A DNA stretch of 64,000 nt from a virus. Its lineage: Duplodnaviria > Caudoviricetes. Made by a program: the position numbers and the translations under genes. Positions 862 to 63,333 of this stretch are shown one piece after another. How positions within the stretch are numbered: position 1 is the first letter of the stretch; the number at the start of each line of letters is the position of its first letter. The notes beneath the pieces were generated by a model. It did not search any database. It was not told the origin of the DNA and saw only the letters and a program-made list of their open reading frames with translations. The stretch lies in IMG/VR virus record IMGVR_UViG_3300049595_005065; one strand, given 5' to 3'.

Positions 862-1314
862 ATGAACTTTGAGATTCGCATCAAAGATATCAATCGGTTG
901 GCGCTCACGGACGTGACGGCCATCATGAGCCGCCTGTCCTGGCCGGACTCTGGTAGCGACAGTTCGATTCAAAAAGAGCTGATTAAACGCTACGTTCACC
1001 CAACACCGGGGCCACACCCGCCCATGTGGTTGGCGATGGTCTGGCAAAACGGTTTTTTCGTCAGCTGGGTCGGCACCCGGATGTGGCCCGAGAAGTTCAA
1101 GGGCAACCCCGTGATGGCGCAGACGGTCGAGTGCTTCACCGATCCTGAGTGCCGCCGCCACGGGCTTGCCCGGCTGGGGCTTCAAGCGCTGATCTCCGCA
1201 GGCCTGTTACATCGCGATAGGATCGTCTCGGTCTACGCCCCAGAGGTCGTCAAGATGGCCCAGCAGTGTGGCTGCAAGACAGTTATCCTCTGCCACCCCG
1301 AGGAGGAAACATGA
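862..1314 (+). CDS. GNAT-family acetyltransferase-like protein
   Basis: Acetyl-CoA motif A-like VECFTDPECRRHGLARLGL; GGAGG RBS. Confidence 0.6.
   Translation: MNFEIRIKDINRLALTDVTAIMSRLSWPDSGSDSSIQKELIKRYVHPTPGPHPPMWLAMVWQNGFFVSWVGTRMWPEKFKGNPVMAQTVECFTDPECRRHGLARLGLQALISAGLLHRDRIVSVYAPEVVKMAQQCGCKTVILCHPEEET
883..894. repeat. dispersed palindrome site, near-match AAAGATATCAAT
   Basis: 1 mismatch to AWAGATATCTWT; encodes KDIN. Confidence 0.7.
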
Positions 1315-1529
1315 AGCGTTACCACGAAGAACAGCACATCGTTGCGCGGCGAGAGCGGCAGTACGTCTCTGCGCACGAGCACTCCCCGCGCACTCCCGGC
1401 CGGTTCCGCAAGACGCACATCGGTTGCAACCGAGCGTCCTGCCAGCTGTGCCACCCCGAGAAATTTCCCCGAAGAATTCCCACCCGCAAGGAGCAGCAAG
1501 CTCTGCGCGACCTTAACCCGGAGGAATAA
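1311..1529 (+). CDS. small Cys-containing hypothetical protein
   Basis: ATG 1311 after GAGGAGG; GRFRKTHIGCNRASCQLCH. Confidence 0.7.
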   Translation: MKRYHEEQHIVARRERQYVSAHEHSPRTPGRFRKTHIGCNRASCQLCHPEKFPRRIPTRKEQQALRDLNPEE

Positions 1530-2242
1530 TGGGCTCGCACTTTTCGAGCACCACGTTTGACGGCAAACTCAATAGCACAGAATTGCGGCGCCAGTACGAC
1601 GCCTATATCACCGAGCTCCTGCACGAGCGCGGCACCGACGCCTACAACGGCACTTTGACGACCACCAGCGGTTTGATCATCGAAGACCGTGTTTTTGACA
1701 CGGAACAGGCGGCCAGCGATTACGTGGCCAGCAACACGCAAAAGTGGCAAGAAGCGCGAGCCGTAAAGTTTCGCGACGTTCGCACTGAAGACGACAAGCA
1801 GCCGACCTACAACGGGCAGCCGTTGCGTTTTGGCATCGGATTGCTTGCAGGCGGCGTGACCCTGCGCAGCGTCACGGTGGCGTATGTCGACCGCGCGCGG
1901 CACCTCATTCCGGCCGATCAGCTTCCCGCGGCGCACAAGGCCAAGGCCGTTGCGCTGTACACGGACTACTCTGATAAGTCTGCGGCATACACCCGGCTGC
2001 GCGGACAAATTGACCAGCTCGTCACGGAAAAGATCCAGAACGTCAAGGCCGAGCTGCCGACCACCGCCGACTACGCCGAACTTAAGCGGTTGCTGAAGCA
2101 GCGCAAGCGCGCCTATCTCGCTATGGAGAAGGCCTGCACAAAGATGCAGGAGTTTGATATCAAACAGGCGGCCAAGATTTACAGCACCAAGCAGGTCGAC
2201 CACGGAATCAAATGGTTCGTGGGCGGCTGGGCTGCCGAGTGA
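1529..2242 (+). CDS. hypothetical protein
   Basis: 237-aa ORF coupled by TAATG overlap. Confidence 0.75.
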   Translation: MGSHFSSTTFDGKLNSTELRRQYDAYITELLHERGTDAYNGTLTTTSGLIIEDRVFDTEQAASDYVASNTQKWQEARAVKFRDVRTEDDKQPTYNGQPLRFGIGLLAGGVTLRSVTVAYVDRARHLIPADQLPAAHKAKAVALYTDYSDKSAAYTRLRGQIDQLVTEKIQNVKAELPTTADYAELKRLLKQRKRAYLAMEKACTKMQEFDIKQAAKIYSTKQVDHGIKWFVGGWAAE

Positions 2243-2270
2243 CCCTAACCACACACAGAAGGAGAACCTC

Positions 2271-2582
2271 ATGGACCCCGTGAAGCAAATTCAGGACTGC
2301 GGCCTCGCCCTGGCGGACGCCGTGAAGCGCGAGATGGACCTCGAGAACCGGCGGCATACTGTCAAGCTGGGCGCGATCGACCGTATCATGAAGTCGGGCG
2401 ACAACCCGCTCACCGGCAAGGCCCACAGCTACAGCTCGGCCGAGGCGCTGGTCACGACCGACCAGCAGTACGCCGAGTACCTGGATGAGATCGCCAACGC
2501 CGTGCGCGTGAAGATCATTGCCAAGGCCCAGTACGACGCGGCCCTCGCGGCGGCCCGGCTCGTGGCTGAGGTGGCGGCGTGA
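2271..2582 (+). CDS. hypothetical helical protein
   Basis: ATG 2271 after AGGAG; in frame with ORF 2154..2582. Confidence 0.75.
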   Translation: MDPVKQIQDCGLALADAVKREMDLENRRHTVKLGAIDRIMKSGDNPLTGKAHSYSSAEALVTTDQQYAEYLDEIANAVRVKIIAKAQYDAALAAARLVAEVAA

Positions 2583-2926
2583 CGACCGAAACCAAGCCAG
2601 CTGCCGTCGGATTGCAGGCCGTCAAAGACGCCGTCAAGAATTTTGAGCAGGTGCAGAAAAAGTACCGCGAATACGGCGCGACCGACACCGAGCCAGACGC
2701 TATTTTCCAGGGCATCCTCTGGAAGGTGATCAACGACGAGGACACCAACATCCCGATGTCCGGCGCTGGTTGGGAGCTGTATGCCAGCAGCATGGACTGC
2801 ACCGAGGCGGCCGACGCGCTGCATCTGGCTGCGCTGGGCGCCGTGCAGGCGATTTTTGCCTGCCGGATGGCCGATCGGCGCGAACTGCGGAAGTATCTCA
2901 GGGACGTGTGCTGGAGGTACAACTAA
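2579..2926 (+). CDS. hypothetical protein
   Basis: GTGA overlap with upstream stop. Confidence 0.7.
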   Translation: MTTETKPAAVGLQAVKDAVKNFEQVQKKYREYGATDTEPDAIFQGILWKVINDEDTNIPMSGAGWELYASSMDCTEAADALHLAALGAVQAIFACRMADRRELRKYLRDVCWRYN

Positions 2927-2928: not shown

Positions 2929-3306
2929 ATGAACATCGCCATCGCCGAGCGCTGGGTCGAGGCCTTGCGCTCGGGTAAGTACACTCAGGGCAAGAACCTG
3001 CTCAAGCAAAAATACGAGTCTGGTCAGATCGCATATTGCTGCTTGGGCGTGCTCTGCGAACTGTATATGCACGACCACCCTGACAACCCGTTTCAGCCCG
3101 CGCTGCAGCTTGAAATGCCAAAAGCAGATTCAGACAACGGTGATCGGTACGTGTTTGGCTCTGATTGCGAGATCCCGCCAGCGGCAATTCAGAAGTGGGC
3201 GGGCATCTACAGGCCTTCCTGCGTAGAGCTGGCCGAATTTAACGACAGCGGCGAAAGCTTTGACGAGCTGGCCGACCGAATCAGCGAATACGCCGAGCGC
3301 CTCTAA
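2929..3306 (+). CDS. phage hypothetical protein (WVEALRSGKYTQG...CCLGVLC type)
   Basis: ATG 2929 in frame with ORF 2770..3306; pattern recalled from phage proteins. Confidence 0.75.
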   Translation: MNIAIAERWVEALRSGKYTQGKNLLKQKYESGQIAYCCLGVLCELYMHDHPDNPFQPALQLEMPKADSDNGDRYVFGSDCEIPPAAIQKWAGIYRPSCVELAEFNDSGESFDELADRISEYAERL

Positions 3307-3761
3307 TGCCCCGCGTCTCAAACAAAAAAGCACGGGAGTACGTGAAGCGCCAGCAGCCGTTTCGCGGCTCGAATATCTTCGCCCGCGATTTGCGCAACGG
3401 CGCGTATTGCGTCTGGTCCTACACAGAAGACTGGCCGCTCTATCTGCGCTGGCGCGGTAACTGGTTCGGCAACGACGGCTGGTATTCGCGGACAACGTAT
3501 CGGCACAAAACGCTGCTGTGTCCCAGCGACAAGGTCAACTGGCTGCCGCGCTCAGTGCTGCAGATGTTCGTGGCATATTGCAACGCAAATGGCTACCAAC
3601 ACCAAAGCTCGCCGCTGAATTACGTGCTCCAGGTTGCCGGGCTCGCCCCGGAAACTACGTCGCCGCCGAGCGAGCTGGAGATCCCCGAGATCACGACGCA
3701 CCCGGCCCGTACCGCAGTGGACTGGGGCGCGGTTCACCGGCGTCGGCTGATGCCGGTCTGA
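3306..3761 (+). CDS. hypothetical protein
   Basis: TAATG coupling; 151 aa; ends convergent with terminase. Confidence 0.7.
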   Translation: MPRVSNKKAREYVKRQQPFRGSNIFARDLRNGAYCVWSYTEDWPLYLRWRGNWFGNDGWYSRTTYRHKTLLCPSDKVNWLPRSVLQMFVAYCNANGYQHQSSPLNYVLQVAGLAPETTSPPSELEIPEITTHPARTAVDWGAVHRRRLMPV

Positions 3762-3778
3762 ATAGATATCTATTCAGA
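3757..3778. repeat. perfect 22-bp palindrome TCTGAATAGATATCTATTCAGA containing the dispersed 12-mer
   Basis: Read directly; spans the junction of two convergent genes. Confidence 0.95.
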
Positions 3779-7095: not shown

Positions 7096-7390
7096 TCCAA
7101 ACCAATTGACTACCGAAATCAGCGTCGGCGCCGACAATGAGACGCTCGTCGATTTCCTGGAAAACCAATACGGGAAACTCGAGGCAGGCGAGGCCCGCGC
7201 CGCGTTGGAGGATCAGTATTCAACCGTCTGGAATGAAGACGAGTTGCAGGCTGCGTTTTCGGTGCACGAGATCGTGCCGCCGTACGTTTACGTCGTTCAC
7301 AAAGAAAGCGGCCAGACCGGCACGCTGATTTACGTGGACAGCCCGCGGTTCTACTTCCTGTTCAACCCCGAGATCAAAAATGGCGAGTGA
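7088..7390 (+). CDS. hypothetical protein of a planctomycete-type family
   Basis: LEDQYSTVWNEDEL...GTLIYVDSPRFYF pattern recalled from Planctomycetota proteins. Confidence 0.7.
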   Translation: MPDPNQLTTEISVGADNETLVDFLENQYGKLEAGEARAALEDQYSTVWNEDELQAAFSVHEIVPPYVYVVHKESGQTGTLIYVDSPRFYFLFNPEIKNGE

Positions 7391-7838
7391 AGGACGGCAC
7401 CACTTCGACACCGGCGCAGTTCGTTCGGCGGACGTCGACGAGGAGCGCTGGGATCTGATCAGCCCGATCGGCTTGCGGGCCCTGGCCCGGACCTATGCCG
7501 AGGGCGCCCGGAAGTTCGGCGCGAACAACTGGGAGAACGGCATGCCCGTCACGGACCTGCTCAACCATGCGCTCGCTCACGTCTACAAGTTCTTGGCGGG
7601 CGACCGTGCGGAAGACCACCTTCCCCACGCTGCTTGGAACATCCTGGGCGCCATCCACTCGCTGGAGCAGTGGCCGGAACTGAATGAGGGCTTGCTGCGT
7701 GGGCCAGGCTGTACTTGCCCGCCCGCCGCCGCGGAGCTCTCGGCTAACGGTGAAAAGATATCTTTGGGCCCGGATGAGGTCAGGCAGCGGCTGGAGCAGC
7801 TTTCAAAGAAGCAGCCCAGCTACACCAGCTCAACCTGA
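7380..7838 (+). CDS. dATP/dGTP diphosphohydrolase (DUF5664 / dGTP_diPhyd_N-like)
   Basis: RWDLISP...EGARKFGANNWENGM...HAL.H....GD..EDHL.HAAWN signature. Confidence 0.85.
   Translation: MASEGRHHFDTGAVRSADVDEERWDLISPIGLRALARTYAEGARKFGANNWENGMPVTDLLNHALAHVYKFLAGDRAEDHLPHAAWNILGAIHSLEQWPELNEGLLRGPGCTCPPAAAELSANGEKISLGPDEVRQRLEQLSKKQPSYTSST
7754..7765. repeat. dispersed palindrome site AAAGATATCTTT
   Basis: Exact; inside CDS, reads E-K-I-S-L. Confidence 0.9.
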
Positions 7839-8750: not shown

Positions 8751-9061
8751 GAAAATACCCGGGTTTACAGCGGCGCATGTTCACGGCATCAGCTCCTGTG
8801 CGCTGGTGGGTGCAGTATGGCACTGCGATCCGAGTAGGGTTTCTGCCTACCCCACACATTGCACAAGTATCGGCAGCCAAAACCGTGAAGTTTCGACAGC
8901 CATCCGTGTCGGCACCCAGCCTGGGTTATCCGGAGTAGGCCGCGTAAACGACCGACTCACCATCATGGATACAACCGGAACATCCGGCCAAAAAAGTTTT
9001 TGATCTGAGGTGAAAGCTTCAACTTTCTCTCAAGATCGGAAGATTGTCCTCTCCGTTCGAA

Positions 9062-9173
9062 CCGCCCACAAGGGTGGAAGAGTCGGATATTCCCTTATCC
9101 GTTCCACCCAGAAGAGGCGGAAAACGGGCCTTTCCTGGCCCGGCGCGACCGGTACGCGCGCTTTCAAGCGCGC
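9062..9173. other. three consecutive hairpins between int and the HTH gene
   Basis: Nested stems CCGCC/GGCGG, GGGTGGAA/TTCCACCC, CGGATA/TATCCG (9062-9120); CGGGCC/GGCCCG (9125-9142); GCGCGC/GCGCGC (9156-9173). Confidence 0.6.
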
Positions 9174-9206
9174 AATTCTAGCTCTCCGTTTCTAACGTTC
9201 AATCCC

Positions 9207-12134: not shown

Positions 12135-13628
12135 ATGAGTCTTTCCCAGCAGATCAAGGAACTCGTGTGCGCGGGCTTCAGCGGCATCTGGGTCGACACC
12201 CAGGAGTCGGACGACGCCGTGGCCACCGTCAAGAAGCTCTGCGAGGAGCGCGACTGGGGCTTCGAGGTCTGGGACCTCGACCGGCAGCTCTGCGTCCACA
12301 ACGCCACGCCCGCGCCCGGCCCCGTCCAGGCGCTCCGCTGGCTCGACACGCCGGACGCCCGCGCCAAGAGCACGCAGCTCCTGCTGCTCAAGAATTTCCA
12401 CAAGTACCTGCCCAACCCGGAGGTGATGCAGGTCCTCCAGAACCGCGTCATCACCGGCAAGGCGATCGGTCAGCACGTGATCGTGCTCAGCCCGGTGCTC
12501 CAGCTCCAGCCGGAGATCGAGAAGCTCTTCACGATCGTCCACCACGAGCTGCCGGACCGCGCGCAGCTCACGACGATTGCCAACGAGCTGTTCACCGGCG
12601 AGGGCAACACCTTCGAGAAGCCCGCCGAGGAGGTGATCAGCGCCGTGGTCGACGCCGCCAGCGGCATGACCCGCCTGGAGGCCGAGAACGCCTTCGCGCT
12701 CTCGCTCGTCCGCCACAACACGCTCAACCCGGACGTGATCTGGAACCTCAAGGCGCAGACCCTGGAGAAGGCGGGCACGCTCGCCCTCTACCGGGGCGAC
12801 GCCAGCTTCGACGGTTTGGGCGGCCTGGCCAACCTCAAGACCTTCTGCATGCGGGCCATGAAGCGCCAGGGCGCGCCGGATCCCGAGAAGCGTCCCCGCG
12901 GCGTGCTCCTGCTTTCGCCCCCGGGTTGCGGCAAGTCGCAGTTCGCCAAGGCGCTGGGCAACGAGGTCGGGCGGCCCACGGTCGTCCTCGACTTCGGCTC
13001 GCTCATGGGCAAGTTCGTCGGCGAGTCGGAGGGTAACATCCGCCGCGCGCTGGCTCTGGTCGACGCGATGGCCCCCTGCATCCTGTTCGCCGACGAGATC
13101 GAGAAGGGTCTCTCCGGCGTGGGCAGCTCGGGGCAGACCGACTCCGGCGTGACGGCCCGCCTGTTTGGCACGTTCCTCACGTGGCTCAACGACCACAAGT
13201 CGGACGTGTTTTTCATCGGCACCTGCAACGACGCCAGCAAGCTTCCGCCCGAGTTCACTCGCGCCGAGCGCTTCGACGGCTGCTTCTTCGTGGACCTGCC
13301 CAACGCCGAGGCCCGCAACTACATCTGGGGTCTGTACCTGGAAAAGTTCGGCCTCGACAAGACGCAGCCCCGGCCGGATGACAGCAACTGGACGGGCGCC
13401 GAGATCAAGTCGTGTTGCCGCCTGGCGGCGCTGCTGGACGTCTCGCTCATGGAGGCCGCCCAGAACGTGGTGCCAGTCGCGGTGACCAACGCCGAGTCGA
13501 TCGCCAACCTGCGCACCTGGGCCGACGGCCGCTGCCTGTCGGCCGACAACAAGGGCTACTTCAAGAAGGCCGCCGTGAAGGCGGCCGAGGCCGCCACCCG
13601 TCGCCGGGTTTCCCCCAGCGCCAACTGA
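12135..13628 (+). CDS. AAA+ ATPase, Ycf46-like
   Basis: Walker A SPPGCGKS, Walker B FADEIEK, sensor-1 GTCN, Arg finger RAERFD. Confidence 0.92.
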   Translation: MSLSQQIKELVCAGFSGIWVDTQESDDAVATVKKLCEERDWGFEVWDLDRQLCVHNATPAPGPVQALRWLDTPDARAKSTQLLLLKNFHKYLPNPEVMQVLQNRVITGKAIGQHVIVLSPVLQLQPEIEKLFTIVHHELPDRAQLTTIANELFTGEGNTFEKPAEEVISAVVDAASGMTRLEAENAFALSLVRHNTLNPDVIWNLKAQTLEKAGTLALYRGDASFDGLGGLANLKTFCMRAMKRQGAPDPEKRPRGVLLLSPPGCGKSQFAKALGNEVGRPTVVLDFGSLMGKFVGESEGNIRRALALVDAMAPCILFADEIEKGLSGVGSSGQTDSGVTARLFGTFLTWLNDHKSDVFFIGTCNDASKLPPEFTRAERFDGCFFVDLPNAEARNYIWGLYLEKFGLDKTQPRPDDSNWTGAEIKSCCRLAALLDVSLMEAAQNVVPVAVTNAESIANLRTWADGRCLSADNKGYFKKAAVKAAEAATRRRVSPSAN

Positions 13629-13639
13629 TAGATATCTAT
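13628..13639. repeat. dispersed palindrome site ATAGATATCTAT
   Basis: Exact; begins on the last base of the AAA stop codon. Confidence 0.95.
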
Positions 13640-13652
13640 TGAGTTCCCACGG

Positions 13653-13675
13653 GCGTGACTGTGTAGTCGCGCTTT
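13653..13675 (+). terminator. gene-end hairpin with T-GTGT-A loop (1 of 4)
   Basis: GCGTGACT-GTGT-AGTCGCGC then TTT. Confidence 0.65.
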
Positions 13676-13691
13676 CCCCTTGGAGAAATCC

Positions 13692-19394: not shown

Positions 19395-19961
19395 ATGAGC
19401 ACTGCTACTCTCAAAAAGAGCCACGTTTCCCAGACCCTCAGCCAAATCGCCGAGGCGGTCGAGGCCGTCAAGAACGACGGCTTGCAGATCTTTAGCGAGG
19501 CCGCCAGCGTCGGCGACAGCCTCCGCCAGGGCGACGTCGTCCTGCAGTTCATCGGCAGCGACCCTGTCGAGATCCCGCCCCATATCTACCAAAAGCTTGA
19601 TACCCCGGTCCTTCAGCTTGCCCCCGGCAACACGAAGGGCAGCCGCCACATCCTCTCTAGCGCCGAAGGCGTCGAGATGTGGGAGCCGGTCCCCACGGAC
19701 GAGGCGTGCGCCAAGTACGTCTACGAGAAGCACGGCAAGAAGTTCCCCAGCGGTACCGCACGCTGGAATCTCGATTTCAGCGAGGAACGAGGAGCGCTCG
19801 AGACCGCCATGGCGATGGCCGGGCCGTTCTTCCGCCTCTCCCAGCCGACCGTGCTGACTCACCCCGAGCACGGTGACTGGCAGCTCCCCTGCGGCACTTA
19901 CCGCGTGATCTTCCAGCGGACGCTCGACGAGCAGGAGCGGATCCAGCGGGTCCTCGACTGA
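19395..19961 (+). CDS. partner of DUF6745-like proteins (RQGD...HPEH...LP.G.Y.V..QR type)
   Basis: ATG 19395 after AAGGA; motifs RQGDV and LTHPEHGDWQLPCGTYRVIFQR. Confidence 0.75.
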   Translation: MSTATLKKSHVSQTLSQIAEAVEAVKNDGLQIFSEAASVGDSLRQGDVVLQFIGSDPVEIPPHIYQKLDTPVLQLAPGNTKGSRHILSSAEGVEMWEPVPTDEACAKYVYEKHGKKFPSGTARWNLDFSEERGALETAMAMAGPFFRLSQPTVLTHPEHGDWQLPCGTYRVIFQRTLDEQERIQRVLD

Positions 19962-19972
19962 TAGATATCTTT
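19961..19972. repeat. dispersed palindrome site ATAGATATCTTT
   Basis: Exact; begins on the last base of a stop codon. Confidence 0.95.
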
Positions 19973-21769: not shown

Positions 21770-22025
21770 AGACGACCTCAAAGATATCAATCCCGATTCG
21801 CAGCTTCACAAACGAGTAGTCGAAGAGCTCGCGAGCATTGAAGCCGGGCGCCCGTACGTCAAGTACGCCGAGGACCGGCTGCAGCGTGACGGCGACCTAG
21901 AGATCGACGACGACGCCGTGGTCAGCCTGGGCTTCGACGACGGCGCCTACATCATGTGCTGGAAGTGGATCGACCACGACACCATGCGCGCCGAAGGTTA
22001 CCTGGAGCCCGACAATGACGATTGA
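21756..22025 (+). CDS. acidic hypothetical protein
   Basis: GTG 21756 in frame with ORF 21654..22025. Confidence 0.6.
   Translation: MSLSEDDLKDINPDSQLHKRVVEELASIEAGRPYVKYAEDRLQRDGDLEIDDDAVVSLGFDDGAYIMCWKWIDHDTMRAEGYLEPDNDD
21780..21791. repeat. dispersed palindrome site, near-match AAAGATATCAAT
   Basis: 1 mismatch; identical to the 883 site. Confidence 0.7.
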
Positions 22026-23760: not shown

Positions 23761-24215
23761 CTGCAAGACTTGCCTACATCATGCGCCATGACGCGGAATT
23801 CGATCCCGCCCACATGCGCGAGATCATCTATGACCTGTATGCCGGGTCGTTCGAGAACGATTGCGGCAGCACCGACGAGATCGTGGACGTCCTGAGCACG
23901 GCGATTTTCAAGTACCGCTGCGCCACCGAGGACGACCTGGACACCGAGAAGGAATTCATCAAGGACGGCCACGCCGCGGAGCAGTACTTCTGCGACTGCA
24001 TGCGGAAGATCCTGGCGGCCAACGGTTGGCACCCCGACGGCCTGGAAGACTACGCCGTCTGGCCGGACAACCTCTCGGTCGAGACGACCTGGGAAAAGGA
24101 AGTCCTGCGCGAACTGGCGCAAATCCAGGCGGGCCACGACCTGGTGGTCCGGGACCAGCTCAAGAAGCTGTGGGAAGAAGAGAAAGCCAAGGAGGGCGCC
24201 GCCAAGGCGGAATAG
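23757..24215 (+). CDS. hypothetical protein
   Basis: ATGA coupling. Confidence 0.75.
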   Translation: MTARLAYIMRHDAEFDPAHMREIIYDLYAGSFENDCGSTDEIVDVLSTAIFKYRCATEDDLDTEKEFIKDGHAAEQYFCDCMRKILAANGWHPDGLEDYAVWPDNLSVETTWEKEVLRELAQIQAGHDLVVRDQLKKLWEEEKAKEGAAKAE

Positions 24216-24223
24216 ATATCTAT
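24212..24223. repeat. dispersed palindrome site ATAGATATCTAT
   Basis: Exact; contains the upstream TAG and overlaps the downstream ATG. Confidence 0.95.
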
Positions 24224-25863: not shown

Positions 25864-26792
25864 TTCTGCTTACCGGCGCCGCGGGCTTTATCGGCTCAAA
25901 CGTCCTCAAGGCGCTCAACGCCCAGGGCCGCGACGACATCATCTGCGTTGACGACCTGACCGACGGGCGCAAGATGCAACACCTCGCCGGGAAGAAGTTT
26001 TACTATTACTGTGATTATCGCGACCTGGGAAAAGGTAAAACGCGCGAGGCCAAGCTTAGCGCGATTATTCACCAGGGTGCAAACTCGGACACCACCGAGT
26101 CAAACGGCCGTAACATCATGCTGGCCAATTACAGTTTTTCGGTGGATTTGTTCGACCTGGCGGCTGCCGCGGCCTGTCCGCTGATCTACGCTTCAAGCGC
26201 GGCGATCTACGGCCCGGGCAAGCCCCGGTGCGTCGAGTCGCACGAGCACGAGCACGAGCACCCGACCACGCCGTACGCCATCTCGAAGTGGGCGTTTGAC
26301 GAATACGTCCGCGGTCGATTGACGCAGGCGGCTAACAGGGTGGTCGGCCTGCGGTATTTCAACGTCTACGGCCCGGGCGAGGCGCACAAGGGCCGGATGG
26401 CCAGCGTAGCGCACCACCTGTTCGAGCAAGCCAAGCTGAACGGCGACTGCGTGCTCTTCGAGGGAAGCAAAGATATCTTTCGTGATTTTGTCTACATCGA
26501 CGACGTTGTACAGGTCGTCTTGTGGGCACTGAACGAAGCACCCTCGGGGATTTACAATGTCGGCACCGGCCAGGCTCGGTCGTTTCACGACGTGTTCGAG
26601 TGCGTGGCGCGGCAAACGAAGTATCCCGGCGCATGCCGCTGGGTTCCGTTTCCCGAGGAGCTGCGCGCCCAGTATCAGTTTCACACGCAGGCTGACCTTA
26701 CTCGCCTGCGCGCGGCCGGTTACGCCGAAGCGTTTCGGTCGCTGGAAGAGGGCATGACGGCGTACTGGCGCAACATCCAGTACGCAGCATGA
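25860..26792 (+). CDS. hldD: ADP-L-glycero-D-manno-heptose 6-epimerase
   Basis: TGAAGFIGSN, HQGANSDTTE, YASSAAIYG, YAISK, LRYFNVYGPGE.HKGRMASV, RDFVYIDD, YQFHTQADLTRLR. Confidence 0.92.
   Translation: MILLTGAAGFIGSNVLKALNAQGRDDIICVDDLTDGRKMQHLAGKKFYYYCDYRDLGKGKTREAKLSAIIHQGANSDTTESNGRNIMLANYSFSVDLFDLAAAAACPLIYASSAAIYGPGKPRCVESHEHEHEHPTTPYAISKWAFDEYVRGRLTQAANRVVGLRYFNVYGPGEAHKGRMASVAHHLFEQAKLNGDCVLFEGSKDIFRDFVYIDDVVQVVLWALNEAPSGIYNVGTGQARSFHDVFECVARQTKYPGACRWVPFPEELRAQYQFHTQADLTRLRAAGYAEAFRSLEEGMTAYWRNIQYAA
26469..26480. repeat. dispersed palindrome site AAAGATATCTTT
   Basis: Exact; encodes KDIF in hldD. Confidence 0.9.
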
Positions 26793-28616: not shown

Positions 28617-29432
28617 ATGGCTGAGAGTCCGCGCTCACCACCCCGAAAGATATCTATTCGCCCGATCCGCCAGGCTGCTGTCGAGCCTGAAACCCGCGGC
28701 GTCGTGCTCTATCGCGGCGAAAGCCCCTTCTTGCCCGACGGCGATCGCTCGTACGCCGTGATCCTGACGTTCCAGTCTGACAACCGGAAGACCGGCGACA
28801 TGGCGCAGATCTGGCTCATCCCCGAGAACGAGTCACCGCTCATGGCGCGCCAGCTCGGTCTGCACCAGATCGTCTGCGGCGACTGTCCCGTCGTAGCTCT
28901 GTGCTACGTGAACCTCGCACACCGCCCCAGGACGCTCTACGAGGCCTACAAGCGCGGAGAGTACCCAGACGCCGGTCCAGCGCTCTACGAGCCCGTGGTG
29001 GCCTTCAAGGGCGTCCGGTTCGGCGCCTACGGCGACCCGGTCCTGATTCCGCTGCCGATGGTCGAGCGGCTGGTCGCCCTGGCGGGTCGGCGCTTCACCG
29101 GGTACACCCACCAGTGGCGCCGCCCGGAGTACCAGGTCTACCGGCCCTACTTCATGGCGAGCTGCGAGACCCTTGAGGACGCGCAGCTGGCCGAGAGCAT
29201 GGGCTGGCGCTGGTACATGGTCACGCTTGACGAGACCGTGCCCGGCGCCGTGCTGTGCCCCCACCAGAACGAACAGAACAAGTACGAGGTGAAGTGCAAC
29301 ACCTGCTGGGCCTGCAATGGCGCCAGCCGCCCTGTCGGTGCACGGCAGCGCGCCAACATCATCGCGCGGCCAACAGGCCACAACCACAGCGCCACACGTT
29401 GGCGCAAACACATGGAGAAACAAACTGCATGA
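28617..29432 (+). CDS. Cys-rich GP88/DUF7227-like phage protein
   Basis: SDNRKTGDM.Q.W, CGDCP...CYV, VRFGAYGDP, FTGYTHQW, MASCET, CPHQ...CNTCWAC. Confidence 0.65.
   Translation: MAESPRSPPRKISIRPIRQAAVEPETRGVVLYRGESPFLPDGDRSYAVILTFQSDNRKTGDMAQIWLIPENESPLMARQLGLHQIVCGDCPVVALCYVNLAHRPRTLYEAYKRGEYPDAGPALYEPVVAFKGVRFGAYGDPVLIPLPMVERLVALAGRRFTGYTHQWRRPEYQVYRPYFMASCETLEDAQLAESMGWRWYMVTLDETVPGAVLCPHQNEQNKYEVKCNTCWACNGASRPVGARQRANIIARPTGHNHSATRWRKHMEKQTA
28646..28657. repeat. dispersed palindrome site AAAGATATCTAT
   Basis: Exact; reads R-K-I-S-I. Confidence 0.9.
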
Positions 29433-31704: not shown

Positions 31705-31716
31705 AAAGATATCTAT
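31705..31716. repeat. dispersed palindrome site AAAGATATCTAT
   Basis: Exact; lies between the AAGGA RBS and the ATG at 31715. Confidence 0.95.
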
Positions 31717-34255: not shown

Positions 34256-35357
34256 CGTACTAGACGATTTCCTGAAGGTGGCAGCGCCCGCGTCAAAGGA
34301 CAGCCACCGATTGATGCTTGCCGCCGCGCTGCTGGAGGTTCTCCGGCTAGCGGGCAGCGAGTCAAAGACCCCGGGTATCGCCCGGGCCAAAATGGTCACG
34401 GCGGCAGAGCAGCTGGCCGCTTATGACTTTTCGGGGCTCACGTTCTCGATTACCCGCGCCACGCGCAGCGACACCATCAAAGATATCTTTGACCAGGTCG
34501 GCACGCCCCCGGAACAGCGCGACCGCGTGATCCTTGAAGCCCTGCGCCAGTTCGTGAACGTGGTGCAGCTCGAGCCCGAGGTCTCCAGCCAGGAGCTGTT
34601 CAACCAGCTCGTGGCCGAAGCGGCCATAGGCTTCAACGCCCCGCCGCTCCCAGCGCCACCTCCCACGCCGCCGGTTCGCGTGGCAAAGAAAGCGCCGGAG
34701 CTGTCGCAGTCCAAGAACCTCTCCGGCGTGTTCCAGGCGGCCAAGTTCTCGCCCGAGGGTAGCCCCGCCGTGGAGCTGCTCAACTGGCAAAGCGAGTATC
34801 CGGACGCCAAGGGCCTGGGTCCGCAGCTTGCGGCGCTCGCGCTGGCTGAGACAGGCGGCGAGATGAAGATCCTCACGGAGACCGGCGAGTTCGTCTGGCT
34901 GCCCAAGGAAACGTTCCTGCTCGCCAAGGCGGCACCCGAGGAGTACGCCATGGTGCCTCCAGCGCTGTTGGCCAGCGCCCGCATTGCCGCGCCGTGGAAC
35001 TGGACCGCCGATGGTGACATGGAGGCGCGATATGACGCGCGCTTTGGCCGTTTTACGCAGCCTGTTCTGTTTGCCAGCTACGGCCCCGACTTTGTGGGCG
35101 CGCTGCAAGACGTCTTCGATCGACCTGGTAATTACCCGCCGGGGAGCGCTGTCGCAGTCACGCTCAACGTTGACGGAACTCCATATTCCGTTACGCTGGA
35201 CGCCCGTGTTTCCAAAACAGGTCCTTACGTGACGGCAAAGCTGCTGGACGCCAGCGAGAACATCGTGATGCGGCTTGACACGCCCCGCCAGTTCTCGCCG
35301 CGGGGCGTATATTTGTTTCCACTGCCGGAAACGGCTGTCGCGCTACTGGTGTTTTAA
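34230..35357 (+). CDS. hypothetical protein
   Basis: ATG 34230 after GGGAG; TAATG coupling to hldE. Confidence 0.7.
   Translation: MTTDCVGSDVLDDFLKVAAPASKDSHRLMLAAALLEVLRLAGSESKTPGIARAKMVTAAEQLAAYDFSGLTFSITRATRSDTIKDIFDQVGTPPEQRDRVILEALRQFVNVVQLEPEVSSQELFNQLVAEAAIGFNAPPLPAPPPTPPVRVAKKAPELSQSKNLSGVFQAAKFSPEGSPAVELLNWQSEYPDAKGLGPQLAALALAETGGEMKILTETGEFVWLPKETFLLAKAAPEEYAMVPPALLASARIAAPWNWTADGDMEARYDARFGRFTQPVLFASYGPDFVGALQDVFDRPGNYPPGSAVAVTLNVDGTPYSVTLDARVSKTGPYVTAKLLDASENIVMRLDTPRQFSPRGVYLFPLPETAVALLVF
34477..34492. repeat. dispersed palindrome site, extended to 16 bp (TCAAAGATATCTTTGA)
   Basis: Exact core 34479-34490; encodes KDIF. Confidence 0.9.
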
Positions 35358-57385: not shown

Positions 57386-58561
57386 GTGGCACGGATGTCT
57401 GGCGCGCCGACCCGATCCCGCTCGATCTTCGCCCCCGTCACCGCGCTGGCCTTCAACGGCCGCCAGTACGAGGACCTCAAGCAGTTTCTGACACAGCGCA
57501 GCGAGCAGACGCTCGTGGTGCCGATCTCCGACGTGGAGCAGCTTCTGCTTGCCGCGGACGGGCGGCTTGCCGAGAACGGCTACCGCTTCAACATCCTGGG
57601 CTTTCAGGCGCTGGCCAACGGCCTGGGGAGCGGACTGAGCAGTCTGTTCACCGAGCTAATCGGATACCACCAGACGCGCCACGTTCAGGAGTTTGAGCCA
57701 AATCTCCAGGCTGCCGTGAGCATCTTCAACACGGTGGTTCGGGCCCGCATCGAGACCGTCCGTGAGCGCACGCTGCTGGTGGACCAGCAGGCGCGCGTCG
57801 TGGAGGGTTTCCTGGGCTTGAACCACCGGATGCTCGACAACAGCAGCTTCCTGGAGAGCATCCAGACCGAGATGCAGGCCAAACAACCGCAGGCCCGCTT
57901 CCACCGGGCCGAGCTGCTCGGGCGCGAGCTGCGCGTCTTCTACATCGACCCGGCGACCCAGCGCAAAGATATCTATTCGGACTCCCGGCACTCGATCGCC
58001 GCCGGGTGGGCGTTCAGCAACAGCGAGGACCGCCAGAAGGCCGTCACCGCCGGGCTGTGCCTGTTCACCCGCTTTGGCGTGGCCTTGGAACGACCCAAGG
58101 CGAGCTTCCGCATGTCTCACGTCGGCGCCGACCTGGCGGGACGTGCCGCCATCCTGCTCTCTCGCGCCGCCGCCCGCGAGCTGGACGTGCCGACGGTGCT
58201 CTCGCAACTTGGTCGGCTCCAGACGACGCCCATGGGCTTCGTGGACGACACCGAGAAGTTCGACCGCACCGTGACCGAGTGGGTCCAGCAGCTGACCCGC
58301 CTGGGCGTGCTCCGCGATGACGCCAAGTCGATCGTGCGCAACGCTGCGATGGTCGGAGCGGATTTGACCGCCCGCGATCCGGTCGAGGTGTTCACGCGCA
58401 GTGGTTTGGGCGCGCGAACGGCGTACGACCTGATGTGCTCTCTGCTGCGGTACGCAAGTAACGAACCTTCCAAGTCCAAGGAGCGCCTGCAAATGGTGGC
58501 CATGGACATGGTGACCCCCAGACAAAGGAAGCGCAAAACTCAAAATGACCGACAACCCTAA
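57386..58561 (+). CDS. DUF932-like protein (divergent)
   Basis: GFLG.NH..LDN..FL and GWAFSNSE...AV..GL.L resemble DUF932. Confidence 0.45.
   Translation: MARMSGAPTRSRSIFAPVTALAFNGRQYEDLKQFLTQRSEQTLVVPISDVEQLLLAADGRLAENGYRFNILGFQALANGLGSGLSSLFTELIGYHQTRHVQEFEPNLQAAVSIFNTVVRARIETVRERTLLVDQQARVVEGFLGLNHRMLDNSSFLESIQTEMQAKQPQARFHRAELLGRELRVFYIDPATQRKDIYSDSRHSIAAGWAFSNSEDRQKAVTAGLCLFTRFGVALERPKASFRMSHVGADLAGRAAILLSRAAARELDVPTVLSQLGRLQTTPMGFVDDTEKFDRTVTEWVQQLTRLGVLRDDAKSIVRNAAMVGADLTARDPVEVFTRSGLGARTAYDLMCSLLRYASNEPSKSKERLQMVAMDMVTPRQRKRKTQNDRQP
57965..57976. repeat. dispersed palindrome site AAAGATATCTAT
   Basis: Exact; encodes KDIY. Confidence 0.9.
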
Positions 58562-60908: not shown

Positions 60909-60984
60909 GTGCTGCGGACGCGGCTGTACCAACTGTCCCTATGATCCGCCGCACGTTCGCGGCAGTACGAAAGTCCAACCATGA
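60838..60984 (+). CDS. DUF5522-like small Cys protein overlapping the GT 3' end
   Basis: LLAQGKCCGRGCTNCPY; GAGG before ATG 60838; ATGA coupling to next gene. Confidence 0.65.
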   Translation: MKRPSASAAVPAPLPRETLLAQGKCCGRGCTNCPYDPPHVRGSTKVQP

Positions 60985-61379
60985 AACTGACGACCGACAC
61001 CGTCGACATCGACACATCCCGCGCGCGGTGGCCCAAGGACCAGCCGTTCCGGCCCGCCCTGATCAAGAGCCGCAAGCAGGACAAGCGCAAGTGGGTGGTG
61101 CTGTCCGAGCCGCTCCTGCCCGGACAGGAGCCGCAGTGGGCCTACACGGAGCACGACGAGTACATTCGTATTCCCGTGTTTCCCTACATGCTCAGCCCGC
61201 GGGGCGACCAGGCGTTGGCGTTCATGCTCCAACTCGGGCTCTCCTGCGCCGCCCACCTGCCGCAGCCCATCTCGGAACTGTACATCGTGACCGGCGTTCC
61301 GGTTCAGCTTCTCTACGGACCTGACAACGAGTGCACCGGGATGCGCTGCTGGGTTGGGTTCGCCATCATCACGGAGTAA
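60981..61379 (+). CDS. hypothetical protein
   Basis: ATGA coupling. Confidence 0.7.
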   Translation: MKLTTDTVDIDTSRARWPKDQPFRPALIKSRKQDKRKWVVLSEPLLPGQEPQWAYTEHDEYIRIPVFPYMLSPRGDQALAFMLQLGLSCAAHLPQPISELYIVTGVPVQLLYGPDNECTGMRCWVGFAIITE

Positions 61380-61381
61380 CC

Positions 61382-61807
61382 ATGGCAACGATTCCTGTAA
61401 CCATTAATTCCTGTAACGTACCGACGGCGCAGCCTGAGACCGAGCCGACCGATCCGGCGGGCATCATCGCGACGGCAGGCAAGAAGATCGCCGCGGCCTA
61501 CCGGCGCTACGACGAGTTGCGCGTGCTGACGGCGCAGCTCAACGGCCTGCAGAACGAAGACCCGATTCCCGAGGCGGTTCAGATTCGCGAGGTCACGATC
61601 GACTTCACCGTGAATGGGCAAGCCAAGACGGCCTCCCTCCGCAGCATTCACAAGGTTGGCGACCTGGCCGACCTGCTGGGTCGCGAGACCGAAGCGCTCA
61701 TCAAGCTCATCCTGGAGCAAGCGACGGCCGCGCAGGCGAACGCCACGGCGGTTGTCGAGGCCTGCCTCCGGTCCAGCGCCGCCATTAAACCCCCGCAAAT
61801 CGTATGA
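61382..61807 (+). CDS. hypothetical protein
   Basis: ATG 61382 after GGAG. Confidence 0.7.
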   Translation: MATIPVTINSCNVPTAQPETEPTDPAGIIATAGKKIAAAYRRYDELRVLTAQLNGLQNEDPIPEAVQIREVTIDFTVNGQAKTASLRSIHKVGDLADLLGRETEALIKLILEQATAAQANATAVVEACLRSSAAIKPPQIV

Positions 61808-62637
61808 AAGTCAAAGGCTTCAGTTTCAGCCGCGTCAAAGAACGGCGCGACCGGATTTTTGCCCACGCCCTGCGGCCGTACATCGCGGCGCGGATCGTGG
61901 GCGAAACCGTGAAGGACATCTGCAAGGACATCGCCAAGGAGCTGCCGCAGACCGCCTCGCGTGACGCCCTTTTTGAGTCAATCCGGGTCATGGCGGGCAC
62001 GCTTCTCACGCAGCGCGACGCCCGTGAGCTGGCCTGGCGCCTGGCAGGAAACGTCGACCGGCTCCAGGCGGGCCAGCGGGTTCTCCCCTGGACGCGGCAG
62101 ATCGAGGACGAGATCGTCCCCGTGCGCATCGAGCGGATCTACGCCGAAAAGCGCCGCGACAGCCACGGCTACACGCTGCACTGCCGCGCTCTGGCCGGGA
62201 CACCCTGCCCGATGGTTTTCCCGCAGTTCTTCAGCACCCGCAGCTGTCGGGCGATCTCGCGTACGCTGGGCTTCTCGGCAAGCTGGGGCACGTACCCCAT
62301 GCACACGCCGCTCCACTTCATGGGGCTGATGTTCTTCGCCCACATCGAGGCAGACAAGAGCGGCGAGACGCCGTACTTCAAGACAGTCAGCAACACCAGC
62401 GGCCTGGTTGCGCAGAACCGTCCCAAGATCGAAGTCCGCTGCCGGGTGAAGCCGTGCCCACGGGGATACCGACATGCCTGCGACAAGTGCTGGCTTGGAC
62501 AGGACGAATGCCCGGCGGCGATCTACCCGCGGAGTTTAATTCAACGGGAGTGCGCTCAGTGCGCTACGATGGGTTTTTTCGAGCCCGACGACGATGGAAC
62601 CGTTTGCCTGAATTGCCGAGGCTCGCACCATCAATGA
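61804..62637 (+). CDS. hypothetical protein with C-terminal Cys clusters
   Basis: CRVKPCP...CDKC...C...CAQC...CLNC. Confidence 0.75.
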   Translation: MKVKGFSFSRVKERRDRIFAHALRPYIAARIVGETVKDICKDIAKELPQTASRDALFESIRVMAGTLLTQRDARELAWRLAGNVDRLQAGQRVLPWTRQIEDEIVPVRIERIYAEKRRDSHGYTLHCRALAGTPCPMVFPQFFSTRSCRAISRTLGFSASWGTYPMHTPLHFMGLMFFAHIEADKSGETPYFKTVSNTSGLVAQNRPKIEVRCRVKPCPRGYRHACDKCWLGQDECPAAIYPRSLIQRECAQCATMGFFEPDDDGTVCLNCRGSHHQ

Positions 62638-62652
62638 TTTGCGAGGCGCGCC

Positions 62653-63333
62653 ATGGGACGGATCCTTTACTGCACGGCGGTCTACAACCGCTGGGACACT
62701 TTTCAGGTCCTGCTAGAAAGTTTTCTCGCGCTTACGGCGCAGCCTGGTAACGAAACCGACCGGCTGCAGATTTACGATTGGGACGGTTCGGGCAAAGATA
62801 TCTATTCAAATTCGCCGCCCGGGGTTCACTACTACGCAGCGCATGAGTACGGCCACATCAACCGGGCCCACGCGCGCAACCAGTCCGTGCGGCTGGCGCA
62901 ACCGATGCTGGACGACCTGGTGTTTTTTGTGGACTGTGATATGGTGCTGCCAGCAGACTTCTCCGAGCGCGTGCGCACCCATGTCAAGCCTGGCCAGGCC
63001 TACTTCCCAATTTGTTACTCGCTCTACGAGGGCGCGCCGCAGGTGGTCACCGAGGACGGGCGGCCCTATCGCCGCGCGCCAGGTTCCACGGCAAACGGCT
63101 GGTGGCGGGAAAGCGGCCGGGGAAATTGCGGTTTTGTGGCGGACGACTTCTTCAAGCTGGGCGGCTGGGACGGCCAGCGGTGGGGCGCGCGGTACGGTCG
63201 CGAAGACGACGATGTGTACTGGCGCGCGCATCAAAGCATGACGATTTACCGGGAGCGTGTCCCCGGCTTCTTCCACCAGTGGCACCCCAAGCCGCCGGAA
63301 GAACAAAATCCTTCCACGAAGGGAAAATCATGA
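62653..63333 (+). CDS. glycosyltransferase (GT2/GT7-like, galactosyltransferase C-terminal domain)
   Basis: NRAHARN, FFVDCDM (DxD), F.KLGGWD...WG...EDDD. Confidence 0.8.
   Translation: MGRILYCTAVYNRWDTFQVLLESFLALTAQPGNETDRLQIYDWDGSGKDIYSNSPPGVHYYAAHEYGHINRAHARNQSVRLAQPMLDDLVFFVDCDMVLPADFSERVRTHVKPGQAYFPICYSLYEGAPQVVTEDGRPYRRAPGSTANGWWRESGRGNCGFVADDFFKLGGWDGQRWGARYGREDDDVYWRAHQSMTIYRERVPGFFHQWHPKPPEEQNPSTKGKS
62794..62805. repeat. dispersed palindrome site AAAGATATCTAT
   Basis: Exact; encodes KDIY. Confidence 0.9.

Follow-up and report, generated by a model that had tools for sequence, protein, structure and literature searches.

The stretch of DNA analysed here (the window, 64,000 nucleotides) is one part of the genome of an uncultured freshwater (lake) jumbo phage of about 200-208 kb. 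The GC content of the window is 61.8%, compared with an earlier estimate of ~63%. The window contains 19 sites related to a 12-bp palindrome: 14 exact copies of AWAGATATCTWT and five near-copies, three of which deviate at one position and two of which are looser. All of them were found at the coordinates given in the original prediction. The sites, to which no strand is assigned, are the following.

883..894: one-mismatch copy AAAGATATCAAT, in CDS 862-1314, frame 0, K-D-I-N
2153..2164: loose copy TTTGATATCAAA of the type seen in the sister clade, within CDS 1529-2242
3762..3773: exact copy ATAGATATCTAT, between the convergent genes 3306-3761 (+) and 3774-5672 (-, large terminase)
7754..7765: exact copy AAAGATATCTTT, in CDS 7380-7838, frame 2, K-I-S-L
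13628..13639: exact copy ATAGATATCTAT, its first base being the final base of the TGA stop of the AAA-ATPase gene 12135-13628
19961..19972: exact copy ATAGATATCTTT, beginning with the final base of the TGA stop of gene 19395-19961
21780..21791: one-mismatch copy AAAGATATCAAT, in CDS 21732-22025, L-K-D-I-N
24212..24223: exact copy ATAGATATCTAT, on the TAG stop of 23757-24215 and the AT of the ATG of gene 24222-24545
26469..26480: exact copy AAAGATATCTTT, in the epimerase/dehydratase-like gene 25860-26792, frame 0, K-D-I-F
28646..28657: exact copy AAAGATATCTAT, near the start of CDS 28617-29432, frame 2
31705..31716: exact copy AAAGATATCTAT, filling the spacer from an AAGGA ribosome site to the ATG at 31715
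34479..34490: exact copy AAAGATATCTTT, in CDS 34314-35357, frame 0, K-D-I-F
40214..40225: exact copy AAAGATATCTAT, in the Rad50/SbcC-like gene 39690-41846, frame 2, K-I-S-I
44886..44897: one-mismatch hybrid copy ATTGATATCTAT, overlapping the stop of 44477-44890 and the start at 44896
47482..47493: exact copy AAAGATATCTAT, in CDS 46887-47621, frame 1, E-R-Y-L-W
50310..50321: loose copy TTTGATATCTAA, at the 3' end of the primase-like gene 49315-50331
52238..52249: exact copy AAAGATATCTTT, in the UDG-PolA fusion gene 50708-53833, frame 0, A-K-D-I-F-G
57965..57976: exact copy AAAGATATCTAT, in CDS 57395-58561, frame 0, K-D-I-Y
62794..62805: exact copy AAAGATATCTAT, in the glycosyltransferase-like gene 62653-63333, frame 0, K-D-I-Y

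The motif is much more frequent than chance predicts, and its definition is sharp. Not one exact copy appeared in 100 dinucleotide-preserving shuffles of the window (mean 0.00 versus 14 observed). The window has 14 exact, 3 one-mismatch and 0 two-mismatch copies, and G001, a complete relative of 204 kb, has 39, 10 and 7. GATATC occurs 24 times in the window versus 4.9 times in shuffles. Only five of these are without full A/T flanks, fewer than the 8.0 that a zero-order model predicts for GATATC overall; as had been proposed, bare GATATC is thus not enriched.

Full palindrome arrays are present in G001 (39 exact copies and 49 of the relaxed form WWWGATATCWWW) and G002, which share the window-type motif, and in G003, which carries the dialect of a sister clade. 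A third clade uses an asymmetric motif, GATAWCWAAA, on both strands; its carriers are G004, G007, G009, and G010. Other relatives have zero motif copies despite the same core genes and promoters, with G005, G008, G017, and G019 serving as motif-free genomes in our comparisons. Since related clades without the array keep the core genes and the promoter type, its function is dispensable or replaceable.

As a codon-aware null, we used a synonymous-codon shuffle that preserved each protein and the codon usage of each gene and left junction copies unshuffled. It yielded a mean of 4.6 and a maximum of 7 copies versus 14 observed; the survivors were roughly the five unshuffled junction copies, and the in-gene copies vanished. 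Codon and amino-acid content therefore do not explain the in-gene copies, which bears out the claim that selection acts on the DNA. The sites are written by the rare codons AGA, CTA, ATA, or TCT or by amino-acid replacements, and relatives encode the same or another peptide at these places in GC-rich codons. K-I-S-I at 40214 uses ATA and TCT, and G004 has K-L-S-I as AAG CTG AGC ATT; E-R-Y-L-W at 47482 is spelled GAA AGA TAT CTA TGG, and GAG CGT TAT CTT/TTA TGG in G003 and G004. At the 883 place, the array-rich G001, G002, and G003 use GAT ATC AAT; the same K-D-I-N is encoded by GAC ATC AAC in G009 and G004 (sparser asymmetric motif only) and in motif-free G008, and by GAC ATC AAT in motif-free G005. 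G008 also has AAA GAC ATC AAA at the codons equivalent to 21780. At 52238, relatives read ACDQYG, ARDQHG, ARSNTG, or ASDANG in place of AKDIFG, indicating that amino acids were changed to write the site.

The positions of the sites are conserved in related phages. At 14 orthologous places in the window and G001 the motif is 99% identical and the flanks 62-70%. The copy at 3762, extended to a 20-bp palindrome by two TGA stops, has counterparts at 108180 in G001 and at 17382 in G003, the latter in the other dialect. The copy at 13628, followed by a conserved hairpin with the loop TGTGTA, is kept in G001 (116415) and G002 (117945), and the place at 19961, followed by a GC-rich hairpin with the loop GTGTGTA, is occupied in G001 and G002 and reads ATTGATATCAAA in G003. 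The 24212 junction carries a copy in G002 and TTTGATATCAAT in G003 (36427), and has decayed to ATAAATATCTAT in G001. G002 (135405) repeats the arrangement of ribosome site, palindrome, and ATG seen at 31705, and the hybrid copy at 44886 is the same in G001 (143071). The 57965 place reads AATGATATCATT in G003, AATGATATCTAT in G010, ACTGATATCTAT in G004 and G009, and ACAGACGTCTAC in motif-free G008; that of 62794 is AATGATATCAAT (N-D-I-N) in G003. The loose copy at 2153 is not conserved in G001, G002, or G003, and the copy at 7754 lies 75-85 nt ahead of a strain-specific integrase module.

The dialect shift between clades is concerted. Many shared places are retained in the sister clade with positions 3 and 10 switched symmetrically, to CTCATTGATATCAATGAG; at five aligned shared places in G003, GATATC is kept at 100% and both positions are switched, symmetrically, at every one. 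An intergenic site beyond the window shows the same change within identical flanks (AAAGATATCTTT in G001 and G002 versus TTTGATATCAAA in G003). The G003 consensus extends to an 18-bp palindrome.

With about one palindrome per 3-5 kb, the sites are spaced more regularly than at random: the coefficient of variation is 0.47 in the window, 0.59 in G001, 0.60 in G002, and 0.66 in G003, and 0.01%-0.5% of random placements were equally even (p<=0.005). As originally described, six copies sit at gene junctions and the rest in coding sequences in all three frames. By our own gene calls, 6 of 19 window sites are at junctions or intergenic (9.7% expected, p=0.008), as are 17 of 49 in G001 and 17 of 40 in G003, a 3-5 fold enrichment across these genomes (p from 0.008 to 3e-9). 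The 13 in-gene sites (eight in frame 0, four in frame 2, one in frame 1) show no preference for gene ends. We found no conserved flanks within ±40 bp of the palindrome, no fixed distance to any promoter-like element, and no orientation; GATAWCWAAA splits 17:17 between the strands in G009 and 12:14 in G007, even though one strand holds nearly all genes. W positions do not covary in G001 (20 paired versus 19 unpaired, Fisher p of at least 0.34). The lack of orientation, conserved flanks, and W covariation argues against a promoter, a stoperator, or a hairpin. The palindrome would be read as duplex, not as a stem.

None of the binders named in the original prediction withstood the comparative test. 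The 'ParB-like' protein (27238-28353) has no Pfam match even at E<=1 and is absent from G001, G002, and G003, all of which have full arrays; ParB_N domains were not found in G001, G003, or G009. The HTH_17 protein (9207) is confined to this strain, as is the neighbouring integrase (7839-8750), and the short HTH paralog (9644) is restricted to the window's clade and missing from array-bearing G003. The long HTH paralog (10093) is a core gene whose putative recognition helix, SPAQVSQLLKK, is alike with and without the asymmetric motif: it is near-identical in G004, G009, and G010, which carry GATAWCWAAA, and in motif-free G005, G008, G017, and G019, the difference being an M in place of L in G008. 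Motif-free genomes also encode the 'XRE-DHS' protein (33116) and the DUF1016_N-like protein (58626). Across 14 relatives, no phage gene or domain had a distribution matching that of the motif, and searches for HU/IHF, Dam, N6/N4 methylase, and type II topoisomerase domains found none.

On these sequence patterns, we give roughly even odds (about 0.5) to the reading that the lattice consists of docking sites for a dimeric DNA-binding factor, from phage or host, with genome-wide action. The palindromes would be places where a single sequence-specific factor with two-fold symmetry, in its simplest form a protein dimer, docks on double-stranded DNA with high affinity. This factor would read the invariant GATATC core and, specifically, the next base out on each side (A...T in the window's clade, T...A in the sister clade); the outer A/T pairs would be read without distinction of A:T from T:A, as in minor-groove or shape readout. 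Such sites probably mark or organise the whole chromosome, not gene by gene, with one in each stretch of about 3-5 kb, and serve compaction, looping, anchoring, or protection. The binder might be encoded by the phage, as a fast-evolving protein, or by the host. The earlier proposal of a dimeric phage protein binding the whole genome thus keeps its core, as a dimer is the most economical match to symmetry and genome-wide spread, and loses its named binders. Of the proposed roles, prophage silencing and plasmid-type segregation lose ground, since complete array-bearing relatives lack integrase and ParB. Against the docking-site reading stand the failure to find a binder among the phage genes and the related clades that do without the array; moreover, 12 bp is short for a classical helix-turn-helix dimer, and the third of sites at junctions would also fit a regulatory role.

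An operator or 'stoperator'-type array, through which a phage repressor or activator switches many transcription units at once as at P1 C1, phiC31 CIR, and L5 gp71 sites, is unlikely but the best of the alternatives. Besides the junction enrichment, it is favoured by several sites that fill the spacer between ribosome site and ATG and by three that abut the -35 of a GCTAAA-N17-GCATAT promoter, centred near -44 (185400 in G001; 102978 and 163987 in G003). This promoter is separate from the palindrome, oriented, bipartite, and conserved family-wide, but the window holds no copy of it versus 19 palindrome sites, and clades lacking the motif retain both this type of promoter and the gene order. 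Of the sites, two thirds are intragenic and show no gene-end preference; orientation and a fixed distance to promoter-like elements are lacking, no regulator gene tracks the motif, and the absence of integrase from complete array-bearing genomes makes prophage silencing unlikely. Cluster A stoperators and the P1 and phiC31 operators likewise place tens of short sites over a phage genome, some in transcribed regions, bound by one phage protein. However, L5 and P1 sites are asymmetric, and stoperators and dispersed operators are oriented with transcription and serve prophage repression in temperate phages with a known repressor gene, whereas the sites described here are symmetric and orientation-free.

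Less probable still is a Chi-like 'self' tag, at which a nuclease-helicase or defence system, of host or phage, would be stopped or redirected, letting phage DNA survive; either a palindrome or an asymmetric word present on both strands would work from either direction. Like Chi, the sites occur about once per 4-5 kb, are written into genes against coding preference, and would act genome-wide with a reader not encoded beside them. Their even spacing, the near-equal strand split of the asymmetric dialect, the clade-specific presence or absence of dialects (expected if hosts differ), the lack of a cognate phage gene, and the phage's reliance on its own RecA-like, Rad50-like, and Mre11-like genes also fit. 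Known Chi sites, however, are G-rich, asymmetric, strand-biased host-genome features of 5-8 nt, unlike a 12-bp A/T-rich palindrome so far seen in phage genomes only: scans of 185,579 species genomes gave scattered single chance copies only, both for an 18-mer and, among the matches listed, for a 14-mer.

We assign a slightly smaller chance to a substrate of a symmetric enzyme, be it a type II topoisomerase (gyrase or topo IV of the host, with a 4-base staggered cut at G|ATAT|C), a nuclease of the restriction kind, or an enzyme that modifies DNA at specific sites. The invariant 6-bp core, exact dyad, and central ATAT between G and C would suit it, as would even spacing for supercoil relief in a genome transcribed almost wholly one way. 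Sugar-nucleotide enzymes, which G001 and G003 encode and G004 (the sole relative compared) lacks, hint at some modification chemistry. Yet GyrA/ParC, Toprim, Dam-type, and N6/N4 methylase domains are absent from G001, G003, and G009, none of the nuclease genes tracks the motif, and restriction sites tend to be avoided rather than enriched. Nor would sister phages be expected to differ at positions 3 and 10 if a host topoisomerase set the preference. A promoter for a phage RNA polymerase, or a hairpin signal in mRNA or replicating single-strand DNA, is very improbable: although the family encodes an RNA polymerase beta-like subunit, the window has no other repeated candidate promoter, and the palindrome tips a 10-bp stem in one conserved non-coding region, the perfect dyad lacks a directional flank, the asymmetric dialect occurs on both strands, the W positions do not covary, the stem would have only 4 A/T-rich pairs in the window's clade, in-gene hairpins or cleavage sites would damage mRNAs, and the oriented family-wide promoter exists separately.

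For docking sites of a dimeric factor, the RK2 KorA/KorB operators and the parS/ParB, Noc, and SlmA sets offer a likeness, being dimer-bound palindromes of 12-16 bp at many places on one replicon with global effects. The sites reported here differ in their unrelated sequence, the absence of a ParB_N domain, and their even spread, neither clustered nor excluded from one region. Cluster O mycobacteriophages carry a 17-bp dyad repeat, TGTTCGGNNNCCGAACA, in more than 30 copies genome-wide (14 of 34 intergenic), with invariant inverted arms, G/C-rich flanks, places conserved among relatives, and no clear orientation; the authors considered a role in transcription improbable, suggested that a dimer binds the repeat, and did not report even spacing, dialects, or codon-level rewriting (Cresawn et al., 2015, PMC4351075). 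Both repeats lie inside and between genes across the genome, conserved in place and without clear orientation. The Cluster O repeat has another sequence and a 3-bp spacer and belongs to 70-kb Mycobacterium siphoviruses, whereas the ~200-kb freshwater phage carries a contiguous, A/T-rich palindrome of 12 bp, which occurs in three dialects across clades.

All 14 exact copies of the 12-bp palindrome AWAGATATCTWT predicted from the sequence lie in the window at the predicted coordinates, and none occurred in 100 dinucleotide shuffles. The three one-mismatch and two looser copies of the original prediction are likewise real, and bare GATATC is, as claimed, not enriched: without A/T flanks its count is at expectation, whereas the A/T-flanked site is enriched more than 100-fold. 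The boundary of the motif is sharp: the window has 14 exact copies, 3 with one mismatch and 0 with two, and the corresponding counts for the complete relative G001 are 39, 10 and 7. Chance would rank these counts the other way round. Genome-wide, within the window's clade, G001 (203,910 bp) carries 39 exact copies and 49 WWWGATATCWWW sites, and G002 (154 kb) 26 and 40, respectively. As an observation, the array is real and strong.

The window comes from a freshwater phage that has not been cultured and whose genome is about 208 kb: window proteins are encoded letter for letter on a lake-metagenome contig from JGI (208,236 bp). Window DNA is present in several lake-water runs; the data sets listed as containing it were Logan contigs of lake metagenomes only, and none was RNA. 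Deposited phages gave no nucleotide match. For the large terminase, identity to the Salmonella phage Arash protein is 29.5%, and SPO1-like phages are more distant. Arash, a cultured relative, has a single WWWGATATCWWW and lacks any palindrome array of this kind. Self-trained gene calling yielded 91 genes, of which 89 share a strand, and we recognised a large terminase, an AAA ATPase, Mre11-like and Rad50-like proteins, SF2 and DnaB-like helicases, a primase-like protein, a UDG-PolA fusion, a RecA-like protein and sugar-nucleotide enzymes. Dozens of relatives, 150-230 kb long, are present in IMG/VR, and fourteen of them, complete or nearly so, were retrieved. An RNA polymerase beta-like protein is encoded in all five whole genomes tested (G001, G003, G006, G008, G009), array-bearing or array-free.

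Selection acts on the DNA word. Synonymous codon shuffling within genes removed essentially all in-gene copies and left only the unshuffled copies at junctions. At site 47482, the peptide E-R-Y-L-W is written GAA AGA TAT CTA TGG in the window versus GAG CGT TAT CTT/TTA TGG in G003, from the sister clade, and G004. At site 883 (K-D-I-N), the array-rich G001, G002 and G003 use GAT ATC AAT; G009 and G004, whose only motif is the sparser asymmetric one, share GAC ATC AAC with motif-free G008, and motif-free G005 has GAC ATC AAT. At site 52238, in the DNA polymerase, the amino acids themselves are changed, with AKDIFG standing against ACDQYG, ARDQHG, ARSNTG or ASDANG. The codon-level comparison thus shows the DNA word prevailing over codon choice and protein sequence alike. 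Position is conserved as well: at 14 orthologous places in the window and G001, the 12 motif positions are 99% identical, and the 30-nt flanks show 62-70% identity. Copies within genes favour frame 0 (AAA GAT ATC TWT), which is the cheapest coding of the word, and intergenic, unconstrained copies favour ATAGATATCTAT.

The sites are also spaced more evenly than random. The coefficient of variation of the gaps is 0.47 in the window, 0.59 in G001, 0.60 in G002 and 0.66 in G003, an evenness reached by only 0.01-0.5% of random placements. Gene junctions and intergenic stretches account for about a third of the sites, 3-5 times expectation, and this excess may reflect the lower cost of writing the word there. 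Several junction copies provide a stop codon (TGA-TAG) or occupy the spacer between ribosome site and ATG. We rejected the idea that the sites are recombination or module boundaries, since synteny breakpoints are not closer to them overall (p=0.16-0.32). Contact with a site at three of 32 breakpoints has p=0.0006 if placement is taken as uniform and p=0.05 if gene boundaries are drawn at random, and we regard it as anecdotal.

GC-rich hairpins directly follow two junction palindromes:
13640-13685, hairpin after palindrome 13628
19973-20005, hairpin after palindrome 19961
Their loop (TGTGTA or GTGTGTA) is conserved, and comparison of the window with G001 and G002 shows covariation in the stems; the hairpins form a second, candidate RNA-level element.

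The form of the site differs between clades. G003 has 40 WWWGATATCWWW sites, 31 of them with TGATATCA replacing the AGATATCT core of the window clade, and its consensus is the 18-bp palindrome CTCATTGATATCAATGAG. By hand comparison, about nine of the 19 window places are also occupied in G003. At the five that were aligned, GATATC is unchanged and positions 3 and 10 are switched in every case, with a flank identity of only about 45%. At site 62794, K-D-I-Y (AAAGATATCTAT) in the window stands against N-D-I-N (AATGATATCAAT) in G003, and an intergenic site beyond the window with identical flanks reads AAAGATATCTTT in G001 and G002 versus TTTGATATCAAA in G003. A third clade (G004, G007, G009, G010, G011, G012, G013, G027) uses a third dialect, the asymmetric GATAWCWAAA (GATATCAAAA), at 14-34 copies per record (22-34 in records at least 77% complete), on both strands (17:17 in G009) and together with 4-21 mixed palindromes. 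Eight motif-free relatives (G005, G006, G008, G025, G017, G019, G020, G023) showed no enrichment of any dialect word, and no substitute dispersed motif was detected in them. Judging from this clade distribution, the ancestral site was apparently centred on GATATC, its A/T flanks still loose; this word would have been sharpened differently in two clades and is absent in others. The specificity swaps at the same places in sister clades offer ready-made positive and negative probes for the binder. The core AGATATCT may resemble the MetJ box AGACGTCT, as GATATCAAAA may the half-site of Hin hix.

Distinct from the palindrome, a promoter-like element is also conserved across the family, the bipartite GCTAAA-N17-GCATAT, which is intergenic, lies 50-130 nt ahead of genes and is oriented with them. 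Examples of it, and of intrinsic terminators consisting of a GC hairpin followed by TTTCCTTTTGCTATCAG, are:
G001 52842, 96370, 165226, 176307, 185437, 186950, 187361, 191594, gene-strand orientation, GCTAAA-N17-GCATAT
G003 5566, 80940, 95823, 103014, 164023, GCTAAA-N17-GCATAT
G001 186058, 187270, 188025, 192006, intrinsic terminator
G003 102936, 103249, 165363, intrinsic terminator
Carrying whole genomes, motif-bearing and motif-free alike, have 5-11 copies of the promoter-like element; G006 has none, and the window has none versus 19 palindromes. It probably serves one temporal class of genes. The terminators, whose hairpin and TTTCCTTTTGCTATCAG tail are conserved, are grouped in a short promoter-rich region of the genome.

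We interpret the array as a lattice of putative docking sites for a two-fold symmetric DNA-binding factor that would act on the whole genome (probability roughly 0.5). Several known classes of such sites do not fit. A parS/ParB or Noc-type set was rejected, as PF02195 (ParB_N) had no match in G001, G003, G009, G008 or G006; the window protein proposed as ParB-like (27238-28353) has no Pfam match at E<=1 and is absent in G001-G003. Neither the clustering of parS nor the regional exclusion of Noc, SlmA and matS is seen, since 39-49 sites extend across the whole 204 kb more evenly than random. An HU domain is missing from the motif-bearing genomes. Among published systems, the 17-bp dyad repeat of Cluster O mycobacteriophages comes closest; its function, too, is not established (PMC4351075). 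Like that repeat, the array comprises more than 30 near-invariant dyad copies genome-wide, found in genes and between them and conserved in place among relatives; the likeness is one of kind and not of homology because the sequences are unrelated. Only a few phages are known to carry dispersed dyad repeats, for which no purpose is known to have been demonstrated. The present case makes the question tractable through its measurable even spacing, the precedence of the DNA word over codon and protein, and its natural specificity swaps.

That the sites are instead the operators of a global regulator seems unlikely to us. The sole hint of local regulatory use comes from three copies, in G001 and G003, that sit directly against the -35 element of the conserved promoter. 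A stoperator set needs an asymmetric site oriented with transcription; here the dyad is perfect and its flanks carry no direction, and the asymmetric dialect of the related clade is about equally frequent on both strands. Nor does a conventional set of stoperators or prophage operators agree with the lack of a PF00589 match in the complete G001, G003, G009, G008 and G006. A Chi-like tag, by which the phage would mark its DNA as self, we consider improbable, and a substrate for an enzyme slightly more so. An EcoRV-type restriction-modification target would be expected to be avoided or neutral in phage DNA and not enriched to this degree, and no Dam-type or N6/N4 methylase was found in motif-bearing genomes; a phage topoisomerase site was rejected as GyrA/ParC and Toprim domains are missing from those genomes. 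The promoter and hairpin readings are, even jointly, very improbable: nothing is conserved within 40 bp either side as a phage RNA polymerase promoter would require, the asymmetric dialect is indifferent to gene strand, and the oriented GCTAAA-N17-GCATAT exists separately, also in motif-free genomes, while for an RNA or ssDNA hairpin the W positions 2 and 11 are paired and unpaired at chance level (7:7 in the window, 20:19 in G001) and the window-clade stem would be four weak pairs.

Each of the window proteins originally named as candidate binders fails a comparative test. Phyletic profiling compared G001 proteins with four motif-bearing and eight motif-free genomes. Three small proteins (window 2579-2926, 23757-24215 and 60981-61379) first seemed specific and were then found in motif-free G017 and G019 as well. 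Domain-level profiling of G001 protein segments returned an acidic tail only, and no G001 protein or segment tracks the array across motif-bearing versus motif-free genomes. Among the proposed binders, Pfam and PHROGs gave only HTH_17 and DUF1016_N, both below cut-offs. Since the candidates fail and no gene tracks the array, the reader should be one of three kinds: a small, fast-evolving protein beyond these searches, a core protein with drifting specificity, or a host protein. A host reader would explain clade-specific dialects and losses with phage gene content unchanged.

The following window genes were examined in this context:
7839-8750, minus strand, tyrosine integrase
9207-9464, HTH_17 excisionase-like gene, separated from the integrase by a 457-bp gap
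9644-10048, 134-aa protein, paralog of the C-terminal half of the next
10093-10830, 245-aa protein, a core gene family-wide
The integration-type module (7839-9464) starts 75-85 nt past palindrome 7754 and occurs in this strain only, being absent in G001, G002, G003 and other relatives; it is perhaps a mobile or lysogeny module that the strain acquired recently. Each paralog combines an HTH-like domain of three helices with a basic linker and, at the C-terminus, a helical hairpin. The predicted structure of the 134-aa protein (pLDDT 77) shows the same order, with the three-helix domain at the N-terminus; Foldseek against PDB gave no match at E<=0.001 and weak likeness to winged-helix domains. 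Atlas leads for the paralogs were transposase/resolvase-type HTH and KfrA_N, with neighbours mostly from Planctomycetota, which for the 245-aa protein gives a weak hint of the host.

In host-genome scans, the G003 18-mer CTCATTGATATCAATGAG had many copies near contig ends of Anaerococcus genomes. These are probably an insertion-sequence end or similar repeat, and we judged them unrelated to the phage array. In GC-rich genomes, the 18-mer appeared as single chance codings of L-I-D-I-N-E, and the 14-mer CAAAGATATCTTTG gave scattered single matches in species genomes among the matches listed. The species-genome scans with the 18-mer, and with the 14-mer among the matches listed, thus gave scattered chance copies only.

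Beyond the docking lattice itself, we propose quite tentatively, and consider doubtful in its full form, that the array is a novel whole-chromosome device of a lytic jumbo phage and not an operator set. Its even symmetric tags, with a reader that no phage gene tracks and that is possibly a host protein or of unknown fold, would divide the 200-kb genome into units of about 4-5 kb or mark 'self' against a processive nuclease or defence; the tag would co-evolve by clade (A...T, T...A, asymmetric) and be lost without its partner. If the reader is a host factor or genome organiser, the array would make clear how the genome of a very large lytic phage is structured or protected in the cell, and it would caution annotators that certain patches of conserved rare codons in phage genes are signals in the DNA and not features of the protein.

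One array site lies in a non-coding region of about 300 nt (G001 L057:11900-12320, with homologous stretches in G002, G003, G004 and G009) that is 79-88% conserved and ends in a terminator-like T run. In G001, G002 and G003, this region contains a 31-nt insert with the palindrome at its tip, each in its own dialect; G004 and G009 have the region without the insert. It is a candidate phage non-coding RNA, and Rfam gave no match. Elsewhere in G001, ARAGORN predicted a tmRNA (L049:3131-3661, tag GAPLALAA) adjoining tRNA-Lys and tRNA-Thr genes. The window also encodes:
7380-7838, 25860-26792, 35357-36880 and 62653-63333, a dGTP-diphosphohydrolase-N-like domain protein and sugar-nucleotide enzymes
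The sugar enzymes are an epimerase/dehydratase, an HldE-like kinase and nucleotidyltransferase, and a CHGN-type glycosyltransferase. They are unmatched in G004, the only other relative compared, and common to G001 and G003, and the set may serve DNA or virion glycosylation.
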